Of a stretch of DNA of 31,778 bases, positions 9,318 through 19,957 are shown in pieces. The stretch is from an uncultured archaeon (GTDB lineage Archaea; Asgardarchaeota; Thorarchaeia; Thorarchaeales; Thorarchaeaceae), in the NCBI GenBank assembly GCA_964458565.1, contig CAYWJO010000041.1, positions 1 to 31,778 of the forward strand, given 5' to 3'. Within the stretch, counting starts at the first letter, position 1. Each line of letters starts with the position of its first letter. Position numbers and translations under genes: made by a program. The notes under the pieces were generated by a model. It saw only the letters and a list, made by a program, of their open reading frames with translations, was not told the DNA's origin and ran no database searches.

Positions 9318-10697
9318 ATGGATTACGGTGATAGAATCTTGACCAAAATGTTTGGTACAAACGGTGTCCGTGGTGTAATAAACAAAGACCTTACTGTTGA
9401 TATGGTCCTCAAATTGAGTCGTGCTATTGGCTCTGTGCTAGGACCGGGTACATTTGGTATAGCACGAGATTCACGGATGGGCGGTGAAATGTTCACTGGA
9501 GTATTGACTTCTGGGTTGACCTCGACAGGTTGTTCGGTTGTCAATCTTGGTTTTGCGCCAACTCCGACTTTGCAGTATATGATTCCCAGACTAGGATGTA
9601 TCGGTGGAGTTATGGTCACAGCATCACACAATCCTCCTCAATTCAATGGAATCAAAGCGCTAGGGTCCAATGGAATTGAGGTAACTCGCGAAACCGAAGA
9701 TCAGATTGAGGCAGTCTACCACTCGAACAAGTTTAGAATTGCTGATTGGAATGAAATTGGTCAAGTCACACATAATGACTCTGCAATTGATGTGTATTTA
9801 GCCGGAATCAAATCTCTCCTTGATGTCGAAGTAATAAAGAAGAAGAAACTGAAAGTGATTGTTGATTGCGCTAATAGTGTGGGGGGTTTAGTGACACCCC
9901 GACTATTAAGAGAACTTGGATGTACAGTAGTTTCACTTAATTCTCAGTTAGATGGTTCATTTCCGGGACGAAATCCAGAACCTATCCCTGAGAATATCAA
10001 AGACCTAGCCCACGCGGTGAGCGCCATTGGGGCTGATCTAGGCGTAGCACATGATGGTGATGCAGATCGAGCAACCTTTGTTGATGAAACGGGCAGAGTC
10101 CTGTGGGGTGACCAATCCTTTGCATTGATTGCCTCGCGAGTATTGGCTAGGAAACATGGGTCAACTCTAGTTACGCCTGTTTCAAGCGGCCGACTTATTG
10201 AAGATGTAGCCCGAAAAGCTGGTGCTAAGATAGACTGGACTGTGGTTGGAAGTGTTATTGTTTCGCACAGGCTCATGGAGATTGGTGCAGAACTTGGGGG
10301 TGAGGAAAATGGTGGGGTATTTTATCCAGCTCATCAGCCTGTCCGTGATGGTGCAATGACTGCCGCTCAAATTGTGGAAATGATTGCTCTAGAAGGCAAG
10401 ACACTCTCACAGCTTGTCAGTGAACTTCCTGTATATTTCAATACAAAGGTGAAAGTACATATTCCTCAAGAAAAGAAGGAACCGCTTCTAGAAGCACTAC
10501 TTGAATTAAGTAAGGATATGAATCGTATAACACTAGATGGCTTGAAGATAATCCGCGATGAAGGCTGGATTCTCATCAGACCATCTGGCACTGAGCCTAT
10601 CTGTCGTTGTTTTGCCGAAGGAACCACGCAAGAAACTGCAGACCGTCTTAGTGAAGAAGGTGTTGAGCTCATTGAGCGTGCAAAGAAACTGATCTAA
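9318..10697 (+). CDS. glmM: Phosphohexomutase (phosphoglucosamine mutase / PMM-PGM family)
   Basis: MFGTNGVRG, catalytic TASHNP, metal loop DGDADR, sugar loop GEENGG, RPSGTEP. The true start may be slightly downstream of the GGTGA. Substrate specificity cannot be resolved from motifs. Confidence 0.9.
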   Translation: MDYGDRILTKMFGTNGVRGVINKDLTVDMVLKLSRAIGSVLGPGTFGIARDSRMGGEMFTGVLTSGLTSTGCSVVNLGFAPTPTLQYMIPRLGCIGGVMVTASHNPPQFNGIKALGSNGIEVTRETEDQIEAVYHSNKFRIADWNEIGQVTHNDSAIDVYLAGIKSLLDVEVIKKKKLKVIVDCANSVGGLVTPRLLRELGCTVVSLNSQLDGSFPGRNPEPIPENIKDLAHAVSAIGADLGVAHDGDADRATFVDETGRVLWGDQSFALIASRVLARKHGSTLVTPVSSGRLIEDVARKAGAKIDWTVVGSVIVSHRLMEIGAELGGEENGGVFYPAHQPVRDGAMTAAQIVEMIALEGKTLSQLVSELPVYFNTKVKVHIPQEKKEPLLEALLELSKDMNRITLDGLKIIRDEGWILIRPSGTEPICRCFAEGTTQETADRLSEEGVELIERAKKLI

Positions 10698-10783
10698 TCC
10701 CTCTTTCCATTATCTAGTGTAATCTCAAAAGGAAATGATGGACTGATTTGACACCTGAATTATAACTGCTGAAAATGCCAGTT

Positions 10784-11016
10784 CATAATGCTTATTTCAA
10801 GATGCATGGTAGGTATTGGTACTGGATAGTGTCTTTGTATCCACTGGTAATGTGATTAGCTTATGTTGAGAGTAGCTTATGTGAGCAGCTATACACCCAG
10901 AGAGTGTGGAATAGCCACTTTCACAGAGGATTTGACTAAAAGTATTGACGAACTCCATGTCTTGGAACCTGCAGCTATTATTGGCATAAATGACCATGGC
11001 TCATCCTACAACTATG
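10784..11016 (+). repeat. Copy 1 of a 233-bp diverged duplication (GT4 upstream region plus first ~51 codons)
   Basis: Aligns without net gaps to 15361-15593. Both start CATAATGCTTAT, have the ATG at offset +79 and end AACTATG. Confidence 0.85.
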
Positions 11017-12026
11017 GAAAAGAAGTAGTAATGCAAATTGATGCGAATGACGAGAGTACATATCGCCAAGTAGCTGATCAAATCAACAATTCCGATTTTG
11101 ATTTGGTCAATGTCCAACATGAGTTTGGTCTTTTCGGTGGAGATTGGGGAAATTATCTCTTAACGTTCCTTAAAAAATTGAGCAAGCCATGCATAACTAC
11201 CATGCACACGACACTTTCACCCAATTCAAGGATATTTCAGACACCCGAAAGTAAAGCAGCCCACGACAAAGTAGTGAAAGGGATAGGGCGATACAGCTCT
11301 GCCATTACTGTTATGACGAAGATGGCGGCCAACATCCTTCAGAAGAGCCATAATATTGACGCCAATAAAATCAGAATCATTCCGCATGGAACTCCACCTA
11401 TACCATTTGTTTCAAGCGAGACAGTAAAGGACGCTTTAAGTTTGGATGGGCGAGTTGTTTTGTCTACATTCGGTCTCTTGAGTCGTGACAAGGGAATTCA
11501 TAATGCAATTAAAGCTCTGCCAGATATCATCAAAGAGTGGCCTGATATTCTCTATTTAATAATTGGAGCAACTCATCCACAAGTAAGACTGCGTGTGGGC
11601 GAGAAATACAGAAAACGCCTTGTGAATTTAGTGAAGAAGCTAAAGTTAGAGAAGAATGTTAAGTTCCACAATAGATTCTTGAGTAAAGACGAACTTATTC
11701 AATACCTACAAGCTACGGACGTGTACATCTGCCCCTATGTCAACGTGGGTCAGCTTTCGAGTGGAACTTTGACATATGCTTTAGGGGCTGGAAGAGCCAT
11801 TGTTTCTACTCCTTTCTATTACGCGAAAGAGGTTCTAGATGAGGGCCGTGGAGTACTGTGCAAATTCAAAAACCCTGCTTCCATTACCGATGGTATCAGA
11901 CATCTCTTAAAAAACCCTGAACAGAGAGCTCATATTGAGAAGCTGGCATATGAGTACGGTCAGGATATGACGTGGTCCAAAGTAGCTTCGAAATATGTTT
12001 CCTTATTCAACGAAGTGATTCAATAG
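10863..12026 (+). CDS. Glycosyltransferase family 4 (YxPRxCGIATF subfamily)
   Basis: SSYTPRECGIATFT, VQHEFGLFGG, TFGLLSRDKG, GATHP and QLSSGTLTYALGAGRAIVSTP. GT-B fold. Confidence 0.92.
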   Translation: MLRVAYVSSYTPRECGIATFTEDLTKSIDELHVLEPAAIIGINDHGSSYNYGKEVVMQIDANDESTYRQVADQINNSDFDLVNVQHEFGLFGGDWGNYLLTFLKKLSKPCITTMHTTLSPNSRIFQTPESKAAHDKVVKGIGRYSSAITVMTKMAANILQKSHNIDANKIRIIPHGTPPIPFVSSETVKDALSLDGRVVLSTFGLLSRDKGIHNAIKALPDIIKEWPDILYLIIGATHPQVRLRVGEKYRKRLVNLVKKLKLEKNVKFHNRFLSKDELIQYLQATDVYICPYVNVGQLSSGTLTYALGAGRAIVSTPFYYAKEVLDEGRGVLCKFKNPASITDGIRHLLKNPEQRAHIEKLAYEYGQDMTWSKVASKYVSLFNEVIQ

Positions 12027-12165
12027 ACAGGAGGATGGATTCTATCGATCTTCCCTTTTTCAACTTCAGTTAGCTGCATATGATAATGTTCGTGCTATGT
12101 AATCTAACTTCAAATACTACAGATTACGAAGAGAAACGTGTATCTAGCATATCTAGCTCGTAATT

Positions 12166-13359
12166 TCATTCAGAAACTGCTTCTTGTGAGAAACTTCGAA
12201 CTTCGTCAAAAAACAGGGTTTTTTTCTGTTCGACTGACACCGCGGCGTACAGATACATCGCTGCTGACCAACTCTGCCAGTCTTGCCCTCTTGGTGTACC
12301 ATCTTGAGCGCGAAACCATTCATTAAAGCCGAAGTCGACTTTAGCTTCACGTGAAGGGCGAACCAGTTCGGTCAATGCGAGCAGTTTTTTTTCCGCCAAT
12401 GAAATCCTGCCTGCCGCCACAATCGCAGCTATGTAGAAACCGCAAACAAAAGGCCAGACTCCTCCGTTGTGATATTCCCCAGGAAGATTGAACTTAGCGT
12501 ATCTCGGATGCCAATCTCGATCCTCTGGCTGAATGTAGGGGAAATAATTAGGGGGGAGGTCAAGCGCTAGCTGGCCTTGTTCACGCATTGTCTGACATTC
12601 ACGCTCAATCCACGAAACCATGCTCTTGGCTCTCGACGGGGAGGCGAGACCTGAGATGATAGCCAGGCTGTTGCCTAAGAGGTCGAAATGTTCGTCACTA
12701 AGGACTTTATACACCCAGGCAGCATAATAGGGTCTTTGACGGGGTGCCAATCCCTTTTTGACGGACTCAGGCTGAACTTCACCACTAATCCTGTACTTGT
12801 TCAACTCATTCCGAATCCTAGAGGCTCTCTCGGTTTTATTGTGCAAGAGAAGATAGCTGTAGACAATGGTATTCACATAAAGCCCGTACCCCAAAATCCA
12901 TTGCTCATCTCGCCAATCACTGGTTGGCAATTGGGCTACCATCTCTTCATTTGCCGGACTCTGGTATTCCATCCATGTCATCGCTTTCTGTACCGCATCA
13001 TCAAGGAAGTTGGCTTCCCTGGTTACCTTTCTGTATAGACCGACGTCTAGAAGAAAAAGAGGTGTTGAATCGCTTGAATTAAGTTCATCTGGGTCATGAA
13101 CAAGTACCGGAATTTGCCCTAAATGGCTTTGATTTTTAGCTAGCGTCTGGAGTACACGTCGCAGAATTGATATTAGACTTTGATTCCCGCAGGCCAGTAC
13201 GCCTAGCCCGGATATTAAGAGATCACGGGTGTAAGGCTCTGGGTACCCCCATCCAGCAGTTCTAGGTAGCGAGTTGTACGGGCCTCGGGCATTGTGCAGC
13301 AAGACCTCCAGGGCTGCTTCCTTGGCTTCGCTAATACTAGCCCATTGTTGTGGCTTCAT
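12166..13359 (-). CDS. (alpha/alpha)6 glycoside hydrolase, GH100 invertase-like / amylo-alpha-1,6-glucosidase-like
   Basis: YPEPYTRD, FDLLGNSLAI, YHNGGVWP and FNEW...QSWSAAMYL parallel the GH100 motifs (YHNGGSWP, QTWS). Confidence 0.82.
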   Translation of the reverse strand: MKPQQWASISEAKEAALEVLLHNARGPYNSLPRTAGWGYPEPYTRDLLISGLGVLACGNQSLISILRRVLQTLAKNQSHLGQIPVLVHDPDELNSSDSTPLFLLDVGLYRKVTREANFLDDAVQKAMTWMEYQSPANEEMVAQLPTSDWRDEQWILGYGLYVNTIVYSYLLLHNKTERASRIRNELNKYRISGEVQPESVKKGLAPRQRPYYAAWVYKVLSDEHFDLLGNSLAIISGLASPSRAKSMVSWIERECQTMREQGQLALDLPPNYFPYIQPEDRDWHPRYAKFNLPGEYHNGGVWPFVCGFYIAAIVAAGRISLAEKKLLALTELVRPSREAKVDFGFNEWFRAQDGTPRGQDWQSWSAAMYLYAAVSVEQKKTLFFDEVRSFSQEAVSE

Positions 13360-13360
13360 C

Positions 13361-14503
13361 TTATGTAACTCCCAGCCTTTCTGAAATTAGCTGAACGAAC
13401 TTCTTTGCCACAATTCGGTAGTCATAGTTCTCTACCACTCTTTTCCTCCCTGCTTCTCCCATCCGCCTTCGCAGTTTCTCATCTTGCATAAGAGTCAACA
13501 AGTGGTTGGCTATATCATAGACACTGGCTCGATAATCGACCGTATGCGGATTCTTAAAGACAATCCTATGCTCTGGTTCCCAGCCTGACTCCTCCCCGAC
13601 AGTTGTTTCTTTCATCATGATCTCCATAGCGACATCGGCCAAAAAAGCTGTTTCACCATGGACTAGTGTTTCAACCAAAGCCATAGCTTTGATAGACAAT
13701 ACCGGTTTGCCGCAGGCTCCTGCCTCAACCTGCGGCATTCCGAATCCCTCTAACCTTGAGGGAGCAGCATAAATGTCGCACGCATTCAGAAGGTACGGCA
13801 TGAAATTCCGCGAAACGATGTTTGTGGTGTAAACCACCTTATTCATTATTCCTAGGGAGGTCGCTAGCTGAAGATCCATGAGATTCTGCTCCAAGGTCCT
13901 GGGCTGTGGCCAGACCTTGCACACGTATTTCCAATCCGGCGCTTTGCCATCAATAATCGCCAGAGCTTGCATCACTTCCTGTGCGCCCTTGGATGCGGCA
14001 TCTCCGCCTACAGTAAGGATCATAAGTTCATCAGGCTTAACGCCAAGTGCATCACGGACATAGGCCACTTTCTGATCATTCTTGTCACGTGGCACGAAGG
14101 ATTCAGTATCCACTCCAACCGGTAAGACCTCTATATTCTCACCGTGCAGACCATCGCGTCTGTAGACATCTTTAACCCATTGCGATGTAACCAGTATGAG
14201 GGGTAGTGCGTTAAGGATCTCCTGATAATTCGCTACATAGCCATCAGCCACTAGCCAGGGCACCGGCAGGACTCCACACCGCTGAGAATGGAGAACTAGA
14301 TCTGGTATATTTCCCCAGTAGCCCACTCCCACAACTACATCCGGTTTGAACCAGCGGTAATACCATTCCTTTTCCTGCGCAGACAAATAATGAGCCGCTT
14401 GAGCGTCAATCCCCAATTCTTTGAGTCCCTTGTAGAGTAAGTCACCTTGGGTTGCCAGTCCTCCAGGGGGAGGTGGATAGTCGTATAGAACTAGTACTCT
14501 CAT
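13361..14503 (-). CDS. Glycosyltransferase family 4
   Basis: PPPPGGLATQG N-terminal loop, KG motif, and CDIYAAPSRLEGFGMPQVEAGACGKPV (E-x7-E). Start overlaps the upstream stop (ATGA). Confidence 0.92.
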   Translation of the reverse strand: MRVLVLYDYPPPPGGLATQGDLLYKGLKELGIDAQAAHYLSAQEKEWYYRWFKPDVVVGVGYWGNIPDLVLHSQRCGVLPVPWLVADGYVANYQEILNALPLILVTSQWVKDVYRRDGLHGENIEVLPVGVDTESFVPRDKNDQKVAYVRDALGVKPDELMILTVGGDAASKGAQEVMQALAIIDGKAPDWKYVCKVWPQPRTLEQNLMDLQLATSLGIMNKVVYTTNIVSRNFMPYLLNACDIYAAPSRLEGFGMPQVEAGACGKPVLSIKAMALVETLVHGETAFLADVAMEIMMKETTVGEESGWEPEHRIVFKNPHTVDYRASVYDIANHLLTLMQDEKLRRRMGEAGRKRVVENYDYRIVAKKFVQLISERLGVT

Positions 14504-15153
14504 CGCTTTCTCCTCTCAGTTTTTAACCATTTTCGGAATTCAACAGGGGATTGGAAACACCAGAACGCTTCTTCCCTCATGACGATATCAGCTTCATATG
14601 TCCCTAGAGCAAAGCCGTATATGTCAGTAACGATAATGTGTTTCCTTCTCCATATGTCCTCGGGTAGGTATGATTTCAGATGTGCCATCTTGATCGCTTT
14701 AGGGAGATCCTTCTTACCACCCTTTCCCCCATCCTCATAAGCGAACATCCAGACCTCTTTTGCTTTAATCAGTTCTTTCTCCCATAGCATAGCAACTGCT
14801 GTCCCGGTTTCTTCGTGGCGTCGATGCCTTGTGTATTCTCCATGTGGACTGTGGGTTATAATCAGATCGAAATGCTTCTCAGGCAATAAGGAGAGCACCA
14901 TTTGTTGCACATCAGCTTCGGATAGAGGCAATTGCTCTGGTCCATCATCGAGATCACCGATTGCACTAACTCCACCAAGTTGCTGGACAGCGCGGATGAA
15001 TTTTGGCGCCCTATCCGTGTCGCTTCCACGACAGAGCGATATAATTGTCCAATGCCAGTCCGAGTGGATGAGCACAGTCCCGCCAGCCCAGATTGTTTCA
15101 TCATCTGGGTGAGCTACAATCATAGCTGCTGTGAAATAATTCCTCTTTTCCAT
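14500..15153 (-). CDS. PIG-L / LmbE family de-N-acetylase
   Basis: IVAHPDDE zinc motif and THSPHGEYTRHRRH second His motif. Confidence 0.9.
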   Translation of the reverse strand: MEKRNYFTAAMIVAHPDDETIWAGGTVLIHSDWHWTIISLCRGSDTDRAPKFIRAVQQLGGVSAIGDLDDGPEQLPLSEADVQQMVLSLLPEKHFDLIITHSPHGEYTRHRRHEETGTAVAMLWEKELIKAKEVWMFAYEDGGKGGKKDLPKAIKMAHLKSYLPEDIWRRKHIIVTDIYGFALGTYEADIVMREEAFWCFQSPVEFRKWLKTERRKR

Positions 15154-15360
15154 ACAGTCTAGTTACGATGCGAGAAATAAAGATGTAGCTATGATCAAAC
15201 GATGTCTTAGTGAATTCGCTACTTCGTCCACTCTATTTCGAGGATCTCGCCACTCTGGTCTTCATGGACGGTGGAGTGATGGGTGGAGCGTTATGGAGAT
15301 GCGCGACAAGTATCACGATGATAGTGGTCGCATTGACAACACAAATTCTGGGAGCTAATA

Positions 15361-15622
15361 CATAATGCTTATCTCAGAATGCAAATCAAGTATTCATACA
15401 GGATGGTGGCTTTGAATCCTCTGGTGATGTGATTAATCTATGCTTGATGATCTTAATTTTTGCAGCTATACGCCTAGGGAGTGTGGAATAGTCACCCTCA
15501 CCGAGGACTTAACTAGGAGGATAGACGTGCTCTGCTTCTTGAAGCCAGCATCTGTTCTAGCTGTGAATGAGCCCAGCTCATGCTATAACTATGTTTCATT
15601 ATTAAGAGAAATGATTCAGTAG
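15361..15622 (+). pseudogene. Truncated relic of the GT4 gene at 10863 with its upstream region (repeat copy 2, 15361-15593)
   Basis: ORF 15440-15622 CSYTPRECGIVTLTEDLTRRID..LKPA....NE..SCYNY aligns to the N-terminus of 10863. Homology stops at 15593. Confidence 0.85.
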
Positions 15623-15627
15623 AGAGG

Positions 15628-16680
15628 ATGGTGGATCCAATCAAACTTCCTTCAATCAACTGCAGTTGGCTGCAAGCTCTGACCGACGATACAGGTGTCC
15701 TCCAGCACGCAAAATCCTCGATTGCTGACAGGAGAGAAGGATACACTACTGATGATAATGCTCGGGCGCTTATGGCTGTTCTCAAGTACTATGGACTTCG
15801 TAGAAGGAAGCGAGCCCTGAAGTTTGCTGGGATCTATCTCAGCTTTCTTCTTTACGTATTGAAGGATGATGGGCGAGTTCACAATCTTGTGGGATACAAT
15901 CGTAGCTTTCTCGATGAGGAGGGGTCTGAAGACTCACTCGGTAGGGTTCTCTGGGCTTGTGGTTATTCTCAGGACACCCTGATTCCCCAAGACTTCAAGA
16001 CGACGGCGAAAGAAATCTTTGACAGGAGCCTGATTTGGGCGTTGGGATCTGGTTCACCTCGGACCCAGGCCTTTGTTATCCTAGGTCTTTATCACTATGC
16101 TGAGGCGTTCCCTCAAGACAAGAACTCTCGGTTAAATATGATTCATCTAGCTGATCGACTCTGCGAGGGTTACAGACATGAGTCTACGTCGTCGTGGCAA
16201 TGGTTTGAACCGTCCCTCACCTATGCAAATGCTCGTCTCCCTCAAGCGCTTTTCAGGGCCTACCAGACAACCGGAAAACAGGCCTATCTCCAAATCGCCG
16301 AGAAGACTTTCGAGTTTCTTGCAGTGAATGGCATCGTTCAGGACGTGTTCCAGCCTGTGGGTAATCAATTCTGGCACAGAAGAGACGGAGAGAGGGCACT
16401 CTACGATCAACAGCCAATTGAGGCGTCATGTATGGTGGAAGCAGCATCCACCGCATTTAAGGTAACAGGAAAGGAGCAATATTCTAAGATTGCATGGACT
16501 GCGTTTGAATGGTTCATGGGGAAGAACTCAAAGAACGTAATGGTCTACAATCCAGCCACAGGCGGCTGTTATGACGGAATAACACCCGAAGGTCTCAATA
16601 GAAACCAAGGGGCAGAGTCAGGTCTCTCCTATCTCTTGGCGCGCCTTGAGATGGAAACTCTGAGGAAGAAAGAGCCATAG
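15628..16680 (+). CDS. Six-hairpin glycosidase-like protein, the usual C-terminal or downstream partner of YxPRxCGIATF-type GT4
   Basis: LTDDTGVLQHA, GYTTDDNARAL, SEDSLGR, WFEPSLTYANARLPQAL, YDQQPIE, GGCYDG and NRNQGAES. GAGAGG RBS. Confidence 0.85.
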   Translation: MVDPIKLPSINCSWLQALTDDTGVLQHAKSSIADRREGYTTDDNARALMAVLKYYGLRRRKRALKFAGIYLSFLLYVLKDDGRVHNLVGYNRSFLDEEGSEDSLGRVLWACGYSQDTLIPQDFKTTAKEIFDRSLIWALGSGSPRTQAFVILGLYHYAEAFPQDKNSRLNMIHLADRLCEGYRHESTSSWQWFEPSLTYANARLPQALFRAYQTTGKQAYLQIAEKTFEFLAVNGIVQDVFQPVGNQFWHRRDGERALYDQQPIEASCMVEAASTAFKVTGKEQYSKIAWTAFEWFMGKNSKNVMVYNPATGGCYDGITPEGLNRNQGAESGLSYLLARLEMETLRKKEP

Positions 16681-16706
16681 AGTTTACTCAGAGAAACAGA
16701 GATCAA

Positions 16707-17591
16707 CTAGGGAATAAGTTCGCCCAGTTCAAACTCAGCCCCGCATACAACCGAATCAGCTCCGCCATAATAGATCAGAAGCTTGTCATCCAACAGGACG
16801 CTCCCACAGCTAAACACGACGTTAGGTACCTTGCCAAACCTTTCATAATCCTCCCTTGGCTCCAATATCGGTTTTTCCGAACGATAGAGAATGTTCTCAG
16901 GATCATCCTTGTCGATCAAGAGAGTGCCAAGGCGATAGACATAGTTATAGTCCACCCCATGGTAGATGAAAAGCCAGCCCTCATTGATCTTAATGGGTGG
17001 CCCTGCGGATCCAACTTTGAGGCTGTCCCAACTATTGGGTCTGGGTTGCATCACGGCCTTCATATTGCACCATCGTTTCAGGTCGTCGGAATACGCTATG
17101 CACAAATAAGGTTCAATACGGTGATACATCACATAACGCCCCTTTATCTTCCTGGGGAATATCACCGCGTTCTTGTTGAGAATGCCATCAAAGGGTAACC
17201 ATCTCTCTCGCCAGTTCCAGTGGCTTGATACCAGGTCTTCTATTGAGATCGATGTGATGGAAACTTGGTATGCGTTTATAGGATGACTCCTGTATGCTGT
17301 ATAGGTCATCAGGCAATCCCCATCCATTTGTGTGAGTCGCGGGTCTTCACAGCCTAGATCCTCAGAGGAATTTGCTGGTGCGAAAGCTGGTTCGGGCTGT
17401 CGTGTGTCGATTGAATAGCCATCCGAGGAATTTGCGTATCCCAGCCGTGACACACCATCATCCCCCATGGCGCGATAGAGGATGTGGACCTTATCCCCGG
17501 CATAGAGGGCGGCGGCATTGAACACCTCTCTATTTTGCCAGTAATGACCTGATACAGGTTCAAGGATTGGATTGTTTTTAAACCGCTTCAT
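16707..17591 (-). CDS. Glycoside hydrolase family 130 (beta-mannoside phosphorylase/hydrolase)
   Basis: NPIL, VFNAAA, GCEDPR, NKNAVIFP, IYHGV, VPNVVFSCG and YYGGAD five-bladed propeller motifs. AGGAG RBS. Confidence 0.92.
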   Translation of the reverse strand: MKRFKNNPILEPVSGHYWQNREVFNAAALYAGDKVHILYRAMGDDGVSRLGYANSSDGYSIDTRQPEPAFAPANSSEDLGCEDPRLTQMDGDCLMTYTAYRSHPINAYQVSITSISIEDLVSSHWNWRERWLPFDGILNKNAVIFPRKIKGRYVMYHRIEPYLCIAYSDDLKRWCNMKAVMQPRPNSWDSLKVGSAGPPIKINEGWLFIYHGVDYNYVYRLGTLLIDKDDPENILYRSEKPILEPREDYERFGKVPNVVFSCGSVLLDDKLLIYYGGADSVVCGAEFELGELIP

Positions 17592-17636
17592 TAGTTTTTT
17601 CTCCTAGTGTTACATCAAAGATTCCTAGCGTTTGTC

Positions 17637-18014
17637 TTAGTGCATATCAAGGACTTCATCCAAAATCGTTCTGACACTAAGGAGGCCAATAAGATGACCC
17701 TGCTTATCGGTTACTGGCAAGTGTCGTATATTATGGGATTTCATGATATTCTTGGCTTCTGCGAATGTGGAACCCTCTTCTACTGTCTTGAGATTAGTCG
17801 TCATGACATCCTTGAGTGGTGTACTCAAGGGAACTTCAGAAGATACCACTCGGATTGCGTCCCGTTCTGTGAATATCCCCTCACACTTCCCATCCTTGTC
17901 GATGATAATGATCGAGCCAATATGCTTGTGATGAAGGGTGCTAATCGCCTCTTTGATAGAGATATCCCCCGAAGCAGTCACTACATCTTCAATCAGCATA
18001 CCGTTGATTTTCAA
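17637..18014 (-). CDS. CBS-domain pair protein
   Basis: IGSIIIID..GIFTERD and IRHLPVTD..LIGLLSVR. Upstream of and co-oriented with GH130. Confidence 0.9.
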   Translation of the reverse strand: MKINGMLIEDVVTASGDISIKEAISTLHHKHIGSIIIIDKDGKCEGIFTERDAIRVVSSEVPLSTPLKDVMTTNLKTVEEGSTFAEAKNIMKSHNIRHLPVTDKQGHLIGLLSVRTILDEVLDMH

Positions 18015-18600: not shown

Positions 18601-18695
18601 GAAAATCTTGAGTAATTGATTCAGTGGGTCCACCCTGAACATTATTTGCATGCGTGAGTAGGTATATAATAACACTCAAATTTACTATTATTAGA

Positions 18696-18917
18696 ATGAA
18701 CGAAACTACTTCGAAAAATGGGTCGAGCCGCAAGAATATCCACCTTGGTGATACAGTCGATATTGTGCAAAAGATGGATCAACGCACAGGAAAGCTCACT
18801 CGTGGAGTTGTGAAAGATATCCTCACAAACTCACCCCGTCATCCACACGGCATAAAGGTGCGGTTGCAGACTGGTCAGGTGGGGCGTGTCCAAACAATCA
18901 TCAAAGTGACCAATTGA
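18696..18917 (+). CDS. YwbE / DUF2196 family protein
   Basis: VDIVQKMDQRTGKLTRGVVKDILTNSPRHPHGIKVRLQTGQVGRV. ATG 18696 preferred. Confidence 0.88.
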   Translation: MNETTSKNGSSRKNIHLGDTVDIVQKMDQRTGKLTRGVVKDILTNSPRHPHGIKVRLQTGQVGRVQTIIKVTN

Positions 18918-19957
18918 AAACAAATGGAGCTGACCAAAGAATATTGGAACTCACAAGTTACAAAGATGAAATCCTTGATCAAATAGCCAGAGAGTATCCG
19001 AACCTTAGGCAATCAAAGATGAGTGAGTTCAAACAGATATTGGGCGGTGCTGACACAACCATCTACGGATTCGACTTAATAGCAGATTCTGAATCGATTC
19101 CTCTCATTCTGCGAATTTATCGACCCGCCTTCTCCGATTCTGCAGAGAGAGAATTCAGGGTGATACAGTTTCTTCATGCAAAGGGAATTGGAGTTCCCAG
19201 ACCATTCCTCCTCAATAACAGATCAAAATCAACTGGCAGAGCCTATATTGTAATGGAGCGTGTTGAAGGACGGCTTCTCTCTGATGAACTCCGCGCTTCA
19301 CAATCCACTCCTCGATTCGGTCACCTATTGGAGTTGTTCGTAAGGAACCTTGTTGCGATACATTCTGTTGACTGGACTGAGGGTCTAACCTTTCTAGATA
19401 GATACGAAATCAAGGAAAACTCGCACTTGTTCTTCACCTACGAGTTATCGACGCCGAAGAAGATAATCGCGGAATATGGAGTTGATGTTTTATCTCCTGT
19501 AATCGACTGGATGGAGGCTAACCAGGATGAACTCGGAGACCCTTGTCTTCTACACGCTGATTACCACAGTATGAATAATCTTGTGAGAGATGACGATAGT
19601 CTTGTGACAATTGACTGGGGGGCAGCGAAATTAGGTGACCGTAGATACGACCTAGGTTTTGCAGCAATGGTTCTTAACTCAATGTATTTTGACCAGACAG
19701 AGAAGTTGGTTTCGATGTACCAATCCCTCTCAGGGCAGAAGATTCAGAGCCTCGAATATTTTATGGTTCTCTCAGCCCTCTGGAATCTGTTGAGAATCTA
19801 CTCGTGCGCGTTCGACTATCAAATAACTAGCGAGAGTGAGGAAACAGCTAATTTATTCCTCAAAGATTATCGCGCTTACAGTGTGAATATTGTTAGGACT
19901 ATTCAGGAAACAACCGGGGTGACCCTGGCTAAACTACTTATTGTCTTGGGGCAATAA
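18914..19957 (+). CDS. Aminoglycoside phosphotransferase/choline kinase-like (APH family) phosphotransferase
   Basis: GG glycine loop, LILR, YIVMERVEG, Brenner motif LHADYHSMN, IDWG and GDRRYDLG. Overlaps the upstream stop (TTGA). Confidence 0.88.
   Translation: MKTNGADQRILELTSYKDEILDQIAREYPNLRQSKMSEFKQILGGADTTIYGFDLIADSESIPLILRIYRPAFSDSAEREFRVIQFLHAKGIGVPRPFLLNNRSKSTGRAYIVMERVEGRLLSDELRASQSTPRFGHLLELFVRNLVAIHSVDWTEGLTFLDRYEIKENSHLFFTYELSTPKKIIAEYGVDVLSPVIDWMEANQDELGDPCLLHADYHSMNNLVRDDDSLVTIDWGAAKLGDRRYDLGFAAMVLNSMYFDQTEKLVSMYQSLSGQKIQSLEYFMVLSALWNLLRIYSCAFDYQITSESEETANLFLKDYRAYSVNIVRTIQETTGVTLAKLLIVLGQ

Follow-up and report, generated by a model that had tools for sequence, protein, structure and literature searches.

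Background

What do eight clustered genes, most of them for enzymes acting on sugars, make or break down in an archaeal genome? The genes lie at positions 9318-18014 of contig CAYWJO010000041.1, whose 31.8 kb were analysed as a whole (from here: the window). An earlier note, made from the sequence alone, had described them as one self-contained unit that would make and turn over a small glycoside or oligomannoside, serving as a compatible solute or as a mannogen-like reserve. Contrary to that view of a single unit, the cluster is a composite of two conserved, uncharacterised modules, which are found jointly or apart in archaea and bacteria and occur alone in most genomes. Module A consists of the genes for a family GT4 glycosyltransferase (GT4a), a six-hairpin (alpha/alpha)6 protein, a GH130 enzyme and a stand-alone CBS-pair protein; module B of those for a PIG-L/LmbE-family de-N-acetylase, a second GT4 (GT4b) and a GH100/GDE_C-like (alpha/alpha)6 protein. 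The eighth gene encodes a phosphohexomutase. With a probability of about 0.5, we read the locus as a cytoplasmic system in which two modules that share a GH130 build up and break down a soluble glycoside or a short oligosaccharide.

Composition and origin of the cluster

All eight open reading frames (ORFs) with their families were recovered at 9318-18014 from the ORF list and by comparison with Pfam and NCBIfam, so that the gene and domain calls made earlier stand. The GH130 and GH100-like proteins share 85-91% identity with proteins named Candidatus Thorarchaeota, and by these best matches the source organism is taken to be a Thorarchaeote, in line with the probable Asgard origin proposed before. 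The view that the proteins lack transmembrane segments and that the genes for a flippase, polymerase or sugar transporter are missing also held up: none of the eight proteins has a transmembrane-like segment in a Kyte-Doolittle scan, in which the highest 19-residue mean, 1.86, belongs to a conserved barrel helix of the GH100-like protein, and no sugar flippase, polymerase or transporter was found anywhere in the window, flanks included.

Neighbourhoods were surveyed in other genomes for both modules. Counts for module A refer to the best 80 of at least 591 relatives of the six-hairpin protein from a profile scan with one genome per species, and counts for module B to the best 80 metagenome loci; the loci in both scans are the 80 most similar ones each and are phylogenetically related. 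Loci with room are those with enough flank to judge the neighbour. The genes do co-occur in other genomes, which is the opposite of what would have spoken against a functional cluster. Family searches returned about 6,000 proteins for each module; both modules are abundant in sediment and soil genomes and show very strong conservation.

Module A: a glycosyltransferase fused or adjacent to a six-hairpin protein

GT4a (10863-12026, plus strand) is a retaining GT-B glycosyltransferase with 76.5 bits on Pfam Glycos_transf_1. Its nearest solved relative is PimA, a weak match with an E-value of 3e-6; PimA is a GDP-mannose alpha-mannosyltransferase. The gene of the six-hairpin protein, a member of an uncharacterised family, follows on the same strand at 15628-16680. 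In 74 of the 80 best loci a GT4a gene lies immediately 5′ of the six-hairpin gene on the same strand, and in 28 of the 80 the two form a single ORF of about 800 amino acids. One such fusion of 796 amino acids was checked; Pfam confirms GT4 in its N-terminal half, while the six-hairpin half is a tblastn match. Such fusions speak strongly for a common pathway of GT4a and the six-hairpin protein. The fusions are also the reason why databases label the six-hairpin protein as "glycosyltransferase".

GH130 (16707-17591) and the CBS-pair protein (17637-18014) are encoded on the minus strand, with the CBS gene 45 nt upstream of GH130. The same layout was seen in seven related Thorarchaeota loci, where GT4a and six-hairpin genes stand on the same strand with nothing between them and converge with GH130 and an upstream CBS gene. 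Among the 54 six-hairpin loci with room, GH130 is close by in 35 and a CBS gene is present in 16. The CBS gene adjoins GH130 in every Thorarchaeota locus that includes this flank, in most Bathyarchaeota and in one of two Methanocellales loci. According to the record titles, module A occurs in Thorarchaeota, Bathyarchaeota, Methanocella/Methanocellales, Woesearchaeota, Pacearchaeota, Iainarchaeum and DPANN-type archaea as well as in the bacterial Armatimonadota, Acidobacteriota, Bacillota including the cultured Propionispira, Chloroflexota and Planctomycetota.

In Propionispira raffinosivorans DSM 20765 (locus L082, 7622-12078), GH130, GT4, six-hairpin and a second GT4 gene are co-directional, and this operon adjoins an amino-acid-type ABC transporter. 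The order GH130-GT4-six-hairpin was also seen by tblastn in P. arboris DSM 2179 (locus L087). These two strains are usable experimental models for module A.

The AlphaFold2 model of the six-hairpin protein is an (alpha/alpha)6 barrel with a mean predicted local distance difference test score of 82. No Pfam family was clearly above its cut-off, the best being C5-epim_C with 23.5 bits against 23.3 over 34 residues. The best structural match, and the only solved homologue, is the structural-genomics protein YPO2471 of Yersinia pestis (PDB 7tem; Z 33.3, profile search E 9e-15), with which it has a DD motif and an NxNxGAE motif in common. Different from the protein studied here, YPO2471 is longer (427 amino acids), is annotated as exported and has neither a known activity nor a linked GT4 or GH130. 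The next matches, with Z values of 27-30, were GH9 exo-glucosaminidases, GH76 and cellobiose 2-epimerases; in this structural ranking GH9, GH76 and AGE, all with Z values of 25-30, were not separable and stood below YPO2471.

Residues D42, D43 and E330 are invariant in 29 sequences, and H27 is the sole invariant histidine. Members of the AGE/cellobiose 2-epimerase group are expected to possess conserved catalytic histidines. The fold is similar to AGE (Z 26-27), with no Pfam AGE match, and since only one histidine is invariant, we give an AGE-type epimerase low weight. For GH76 the hallmark is an adjacent catalytic Asp-Asp pair, of which the invariant D42-D43 pair is a candidate counterpart. 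The fold similarity to GH76 amounts to Z 25-29, the score on PF03663 is 18.1 bits and below the cut-off of 25.9, and the profile match to Bacillus circulans GH76 (E 4e-4) covers 86 residues only. Instead of a hydrolase, the protein may be a transglycosylase or a non-hydrolytic enzyme. The MDIP synthase of Thermotoga is a conceivable relative.

GH130 and the question of salvage

The GH130 protein scores 212 bits on PF04041 (cut-off 26, residues 2-292) and is closest to subfamily GH130_6. Its best-scoring model is NF052550, beta-1,2-mannobiose phosphorylase, with 303.4 bits, which is under the equivalog cut-off of 450. In the PDB it matches 9fj8 (Teth514_1788, E 1e-70) and 7fip (Teth514_1789, E 2e-68). 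Across 29 archaeal orthologues N139 and K140 of the NK motif do not vary, and neither do R158, K192 and H211. The latter three correspond in the alignment to the HR, RVG/KIG and YH positions of both Teth514 enzymes; residues were mapped to published catalytic residues by motif alignment, not by structure. In GH130 phosphorylases three conserved basic residues hold the phosphate, which are glutamates in beta-1,2-mannosidases, so that their loss marks the hydrolase branch (PMC4599007). As the phosphate-holding residues are kept, the enzyme of the window should be a phosphorylase and not a hydrolase. All GH130s tested from clusters of both modules, bacterial ones included, likewise score best on beta-1,2-mannobiose phosphorylase models. 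The placement of GH130 in the beta-1,2-mannoside phosphorylase clade fits the earlier idea of a small mannoside or mannogen-like reserve.

In two other Asgard families, three tandem GH130 copies were observed in each of the genomes G030 (contig C3, 111447-114341) and G040 (contig C9, 60671-63596). Two of the copies share one open frame of about 1,044-1,052 amino acids and may thus encode a pair of GH130s fused into one protein.

Catabolism is the classical role of GH130 phosphorylases, and the locus might therefore serve to dismantle imported beta-1,2-mannosides or fragments of N-acetylglucosamine (GlcNAc)/mannose glycans, for instance sediment debris from N-glycans or fungal mannan, with GH130 releasing mannose-1-phosphate that the mutase would pass to glycolysis or GDP-mannose synthesis. 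PIG-L-family deacetylases and (alpha/alpha)6 hydrolases occur in amino-sugar catabolism, too. A scheme of this kind was proposed for the Teth514_1785-1796 cluster of Thermoanaerobacter sp., which holds the closest characterised homologues of the GH130 studied here: there, the genes of the cytoplasmic GH130 enzymes neighbour those of a hypothetical protein and a GT4 "alpha-mannosyltransferase", and the cluster, which includes an ABC transporter, GH5 and mannose-1-phosphate guanylyltransferase, was interpreted as GDP-mannose salvage (PMC4264767). The window lacks these three genes and apparently adds the six-hairpin, CBS and mutase genes and the PIG-L/GT4/GH100-like module. A sugar transporter is neither present in the window nor recurrent in about 160 related loci. 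Furthermore, two GT4s of the type using nucleotide sugars belong to the core, one of them fused to the six-hairpin protein, which is hard to fit to pure catabolism. We consider salvage unlikely.

The CBS protein has two repeats with 95.6 bits on PF00571. A complex prediction for GH130 and CBS from paired 29-row alignments gave a score of 0.00, which says nothing either way on binding. The mutase (9318-10697, plus strand) has four PGM_PMM Pfam domains, belongs to the archaeal GlmM/PMM family and reaches 555.7 bits on TIGR03990 (archaeal GlmM), passing the cut-off of 439. Two more paralogues are encoded in the genome, of which that on contig C20 passes TIGR03990 as well, with 525.7 bits; judged by family, the substrate could be the phosphate of glucosamine (GlcN), mannose or glucose. 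The mutase gene stands directly 5′ of GT4a in Thorarchaeota loci L025, L030, L114, L115, L116, L122 and L123 and is rarely linked outside Thorarchaeota.

Module B: a deacetylase, a second glycosyltransferase and a GH100-like protein

Module B occupies 12166-15153 on the minus strand and is tightly packed, with a 4-nt overlap between the PIG-L (14500-15153) and GT4b (13361-14503) genes and a 1-nt gap between GT4b and the GH100-like gene (12166-13359). The three keep this colinear order in 51 of the 53 metagenome loci with room; over the 80 loci, identities to the proteins of the window are 66-92% for GT4b and 60-86% for the GH100-like protein. The latter had about 6,400 relatives in a family search. 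Its identity to bacterial and Bathyarchaeota proteins spans 60-79% overall and amounts to 65-79% for those named from Bathyarchaeota (MCG-15), Dehalococcoidia, Planctomycetota and Bacteroidales. In a sample of 151 Asgard genomes, on the other hand, the GH100-like gene was restricted to this genome and three of the eight genomes of one related genus. Patchy occurrence in Asgard together with high G+C content and the identity across domains points to horizontal spread of module B.

PIG-L scores 37.6 bits on PF02585 (cut-off 28.2), carries the metal/base motif AHPDDE at residues 14-19 and has kept the HRRH (HxxH) motif; profile and both motifs thus agree in predicting a PIG-L/LmbE deacetylase. 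It had no match among PDB sequences up to E 0.1. The GH100-like protein matches PF12899 with 51.3 bits (cut-off 23.6) through residues 184-373 in its C-terminal half, corresponding to profile positions 250-429 of 435, and alkaline invertases in the PDB with E values of about 1e-7, again over the C-terminal half only. E347 is invariant and located in a block aligned to the C-terminal catalytic region of invertases. The second catalytic carboxylate of invertases is an N-terminal aspartate, for which D148 in the invariant stretch SDWRDE is a candidate by its likeness to the invertase motif.

The nearest solved relatives of GT4b are MshA (7qsg, E 2.6e-12) and BshA (2jjm, 3mbo), and PIG-L corresponds to MshB/BshB. 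From this one might expect module B to produce the GlcN-acceptor core of a low-molecular-weight thiol akin to mycothiol or bacillithiol. The equivalog scores of GT4b are, however, far under the cut-offs (68 bits against 462 on TIGR03449 for MshA; 48 against 274 on TIGR03999 for BshA), neither a cysteine ligase of the MshC/BshC type nor an acetyltransferase recurs among the 80 module B neighbourhoods, and the invariable third gene is that of the GH100-like protein. A thiol is thus a very improbable product.

GT4 and deacetylase pairs do not act on thiol precursors only. GlcN-phosphatidylinositol is made by such a pair. The locus could consequently provide the precursor of a membrane glycolipid or glycoconjugate, in which GT4b and PIG-L form a GlcN-lipid head group resembling GlcN-phosphatidylinositol or GlcN-phosphatidylglycerol, and the PimA-like GT4a adds mannose, giving a core like that of glycosylphosphatidylinositol or phosphatidylinositol mannosides, assembled at the cytoplasmic face by peripheral enzymes. 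Besides the relation of GT4a to PimA, a weak match of GT4b to the model for GlcNAc-phosphatidylglycerol synthase (42 bits) and an inositol-1-phosphate synthase encoded in the genome fit this possibility. In Pseudomonas, GlcN-phosphatidylglycerol is made by a GT4 and a deacetylase encoded by gpgS and gpgD (PMC12713373). Yet no flippase or membrane protein is linked to either module, whereas such a protein is encoded in gpgSDF, and it is not obvious what a soluble phosphorylase and two soluble barrel proteins would do in building a lipid. Moreover, module B proteins of named archaea and bacteria, which have different lipid backbones, share 60-80% identity. This conservation across the domains argues for an acceptor independent of lipids, that is, a soluble one common to archaea and bacteria rather than a membrane lipid, and we hold a glycolipid to be an improbable product.

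Linkage of the modules and rearrangement of the locus

Among the 30 module B loci with at least 6.5 kb upstream, GH130 stands beside the module in 14 and a six-hairpin gene in 12. In several loci GH130 lies directly 5′ of PIG-L in the same direction. Both modules are carried by L072, L074 and L077, which come from two unclassified archaea and a metagenome-assembled genome of Pacearchaeota; further examples of both modules or of module B paired with GH130 are L124, L125, L127, L130, L159, L160, L177, L178, L182 and L188. All eight genes are held by four Thorarchaeota genomes, in two arrangements. The order in G117 and G132 is mutase, GT4a, six-hairpin, GH130, CBS, PIG-L, GT4b, GH100-like. In the window, the minus-strand block of PIG-L, GT4b and GH100-like genes (12166-15153) lies between GT4a and the six-hairpin gene, and G020 (locus L115) has this rearranged order, too.

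Directly upstream of the six-hairpin gene we found a relic of 274 nt (15354-15627, plus strand) that the earlier note had not described. It comprises the GT4a promoter region, the first approximately 150 coding nt and the last approximately 40 nt before the six-hairpin start. It is visible as direct repeats (10777-10865 with 15354-15442, 75% identity; 10885-11016 with 15462-15593, 73%), while 15587-15627 matches the GT4a 3′ end and the spacer of genome G117 at 85%. The relic is also present at 88% identity in G020 and on the metagenome contig L121. As both ends of the gene remain at this place, a second GT4a gene once stood upstream of the six-hairpin gene and has since been largely deleted. 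The relic marks recombination between two diverged copies of module A.

The G+C content is 47-49% (45-54% at third codon positions, GC3) in the GH100-like, GT4b, PIG-L, six-hairpin and GH130 genes (12166-17591). The genome mean is 40.9% with a standard deviation of 2.3% in 1.2-kb windows, only 0.5-0.8% of which are as G+C-rich as these five genes. GT4a (G+C 41.6%) and the mutase (GC3 34.6%) look native. This pattern suggests that part of the locus was recently acquired or replaced; the six-hairpin and GH130 genes may have been replaced in this genome.

Two unrelated pathways could hence have arrived together on transferred DNA and stand side by side through shared mobility only. The deviating G+C content, the rearrangement marked by the relic, the restriction of module B to few Asgard genomes and the presence of only one module in most loci are all compatible with this. 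Against it, the pairing recurs in distant lineages and in varied gene orders, including the two Thorarchaeota arrangements, and GH130s of the same functional clade attach to either module. We attribute a small chance to mere co-transfer.

The proposed cycle

In the make-and-break cycle that we prefer, the product is probably a glycoside containing glucosamine and beta-mannose, which is built and recycled within the cell. GT4b would transfer GlcNAc from a nucleotide sugar onto a small acceptor, and PIG-L would then remove the acetyl group to leave an alpha-glucosaminide, as happens in MshA/MshB, BshA/BshB and PIG-A/PIG-L; the GH100-like barrel could act as the matching inverting hydrolase for this product of module B. 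GT4a would add a second alpha-linked sugar, possibly mannose, and the six-hairpin protein with its conserved Asp-Asp...Glu set would process or cleave the product of GT4a. GH130 would add and remove beta-1,2-mannose reversibly via mannose-1-phosphate and phosphate, and the mutase, interconverting hexose-6-phosphate and hexose-1-phosphate, would feed or drain the cycle. Adenine-nucleotide levels may act on GH130 through the CBS protein. Each retaining GT4 would thus be paired with a barrel protein, while GH130 handles the beta-mannosyl bond. Because sugar-1-phosphate nucleotidyltransferases and inositol-1-phosphate synthase are encoded outside the window, several donors and acceptors are feasible.

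A more far-reaching version, which we put forward tentatively and regard as doubtful, is that both modules constitute a pathway, spread by transfer, for a new glycoside or oligomer with an alpha-glucosaminide core and beta-1,2-mannose. This would be a "prokaryotic mannogen" or an amino-sugar compatible solute, with GH130 as a reversible phosphate-driven polymerase and the six-hairpin protein as the founding member of a new GH or transglycosylase family working fused to a GT4.

Several points weigh against the proposed cycle. Since GT4 enzymes are retaining, the beta-mannoside for GH130 cannot be the direct product of GT4a, and how the two connect chemically is an assumption. It would be uncommon for a synthase to be fused to a hydrolase acting on what it makes. 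Genomes with just one of the modules predominate, and the modules may thus serve separate pathways; the cluster is not one self-contained unit, module B is patchy in Asgard, and the loci counted are kin, by which the linkage counts overstate independence. Linkage of the mutase is essentially bound to Thorarchaeota, where this genome has three paralogues. Among the eight proteins, every NCBIfam equivalog cut-off was missed except that for GlmM, and ORF clustering of the approximately 160 neighbourhoods showed no recurring phosphatase, kinase or nucleotidyltransferase. The recurring extra neighbours there were lineage-specific only: CorA, TrkA-C, MFS, AI-2E transporter, pyruvoyl arginine decarboxylase and arginase. 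Gene families, linkage, fusion and conserved residues can be read from the sequence, which does not give the product, acceptor or donor; these, the direction of flux (synthesis or salvage) and regulation through a CBS "energy-charge gate" on GH130 we infer.

Related systems

A parallel for a reserve is the mannogen cycle of Leishmania, in which GT108 mannosyltransferase/phosphorylases of the GH130 fold build a cytoplasmic beta-1,2-mannan and phosphorolyse it to mannose-1-phosphate. The enzyme of the window belongs to GH130 instead of GT108, and GT4, six-hairpin and CBS proteins have no counterpart in Leishmania. To our knowledge, beta-1,2-mannan has not been shown in any archaeon. For GH130_6 enzymes a weak transferase activity with GDP-mannose was found in vitro, which according to the authors possibly has no physiological meaning (PMC12814180).

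Module B has the families and the two-step logic of the pairs that add glucosamine, i.e. MshA/MshB, BshA/BshB, PIG-A/PIG-L, BtrM/BtrD and GpgS/GpgD. Unlike the systems of these pairs, it comes without genes for a ligase, flippase or aminocyclitol and has a GH100-like protein as its fixed third member. The pairing of GT4b with that protein also resembles the sucrose cycle of cyanobacteria and plants, in which sucrose-phosphate synthase, a GT4, is accompanied by a cytoplasmic GH100 alkaline/neutral invertase, an inverting hydrolase of the small glycoside that the cell has made; the alignment to invertases is limited here to the C-terminal half at E about 1e-7. Since the deacetylase is obligatory in module B, an amino sugar rather than glucose is implied.

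The cyclic beta-1,2-glucan synthase Cgs consists of a GT84 domain, an (alpha/alpha)6 transglycosylase domain and a GH94 phosphorylase domain. Like Cgs, module A unites a nucleotide-sugar transferase, a six-hairpin domain and a beta-1,2-glycan phosphorylase, of which the first two are fused in many genomes. It differs in employing a retaining GT4, another six-hairpin family and GH130, in having mannose as the sugar and in lacking membrane domains.

The protein families have been described before, but in the literature we found no paper characterising either module, the GT4-six-hairpin fusion or a linkage mediated by GH130, and where archaeal GH130 genes came up it was just under the general label "mannan degradation". 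Knowledge of the product would correct the annotation of thousands of genes labelled "glycosyltransferase", "amylo-alpha-1,6-glucosidase" or "mannan degradation", would probably add at least one new CAZy-type family (the six-hairpin/YPO2471 family) and would show whether reserves of beta-1,2-mannan or solutes with amino sugars occur beyond trypanosomatids and actinomycetes. Its weight for Asgard biology is lesser, given an accessory locus of which a part seems to be a recent acquisition.

Flanking genes

The cluster is flanked by genes for histidine kinases, an MtrH homologue, DUF2196, an APH-family kinase, TPR and NosD-like proteins. In the window the order is MtrH (1602-2576), cluster, DUF2196 (18654-18917). 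In the corresponding region of G020 (L023/L115), DUF2196 stands upstream of the mutase, MtrH is found beyond CBS, and every gene has kept its orientation. Given this permutation of the flanks in close relatives, the entire cluster seems to have been moved or re-inserted as one block. In the related Thorarchaeota loci that were examined, no APH-family kinase gene was found next to the cluster, so that the kinase is probably not a member of the cluster. The start of the kinase gene is overlapped by the DUF2196 gene by 4 nt within 18654-19957.

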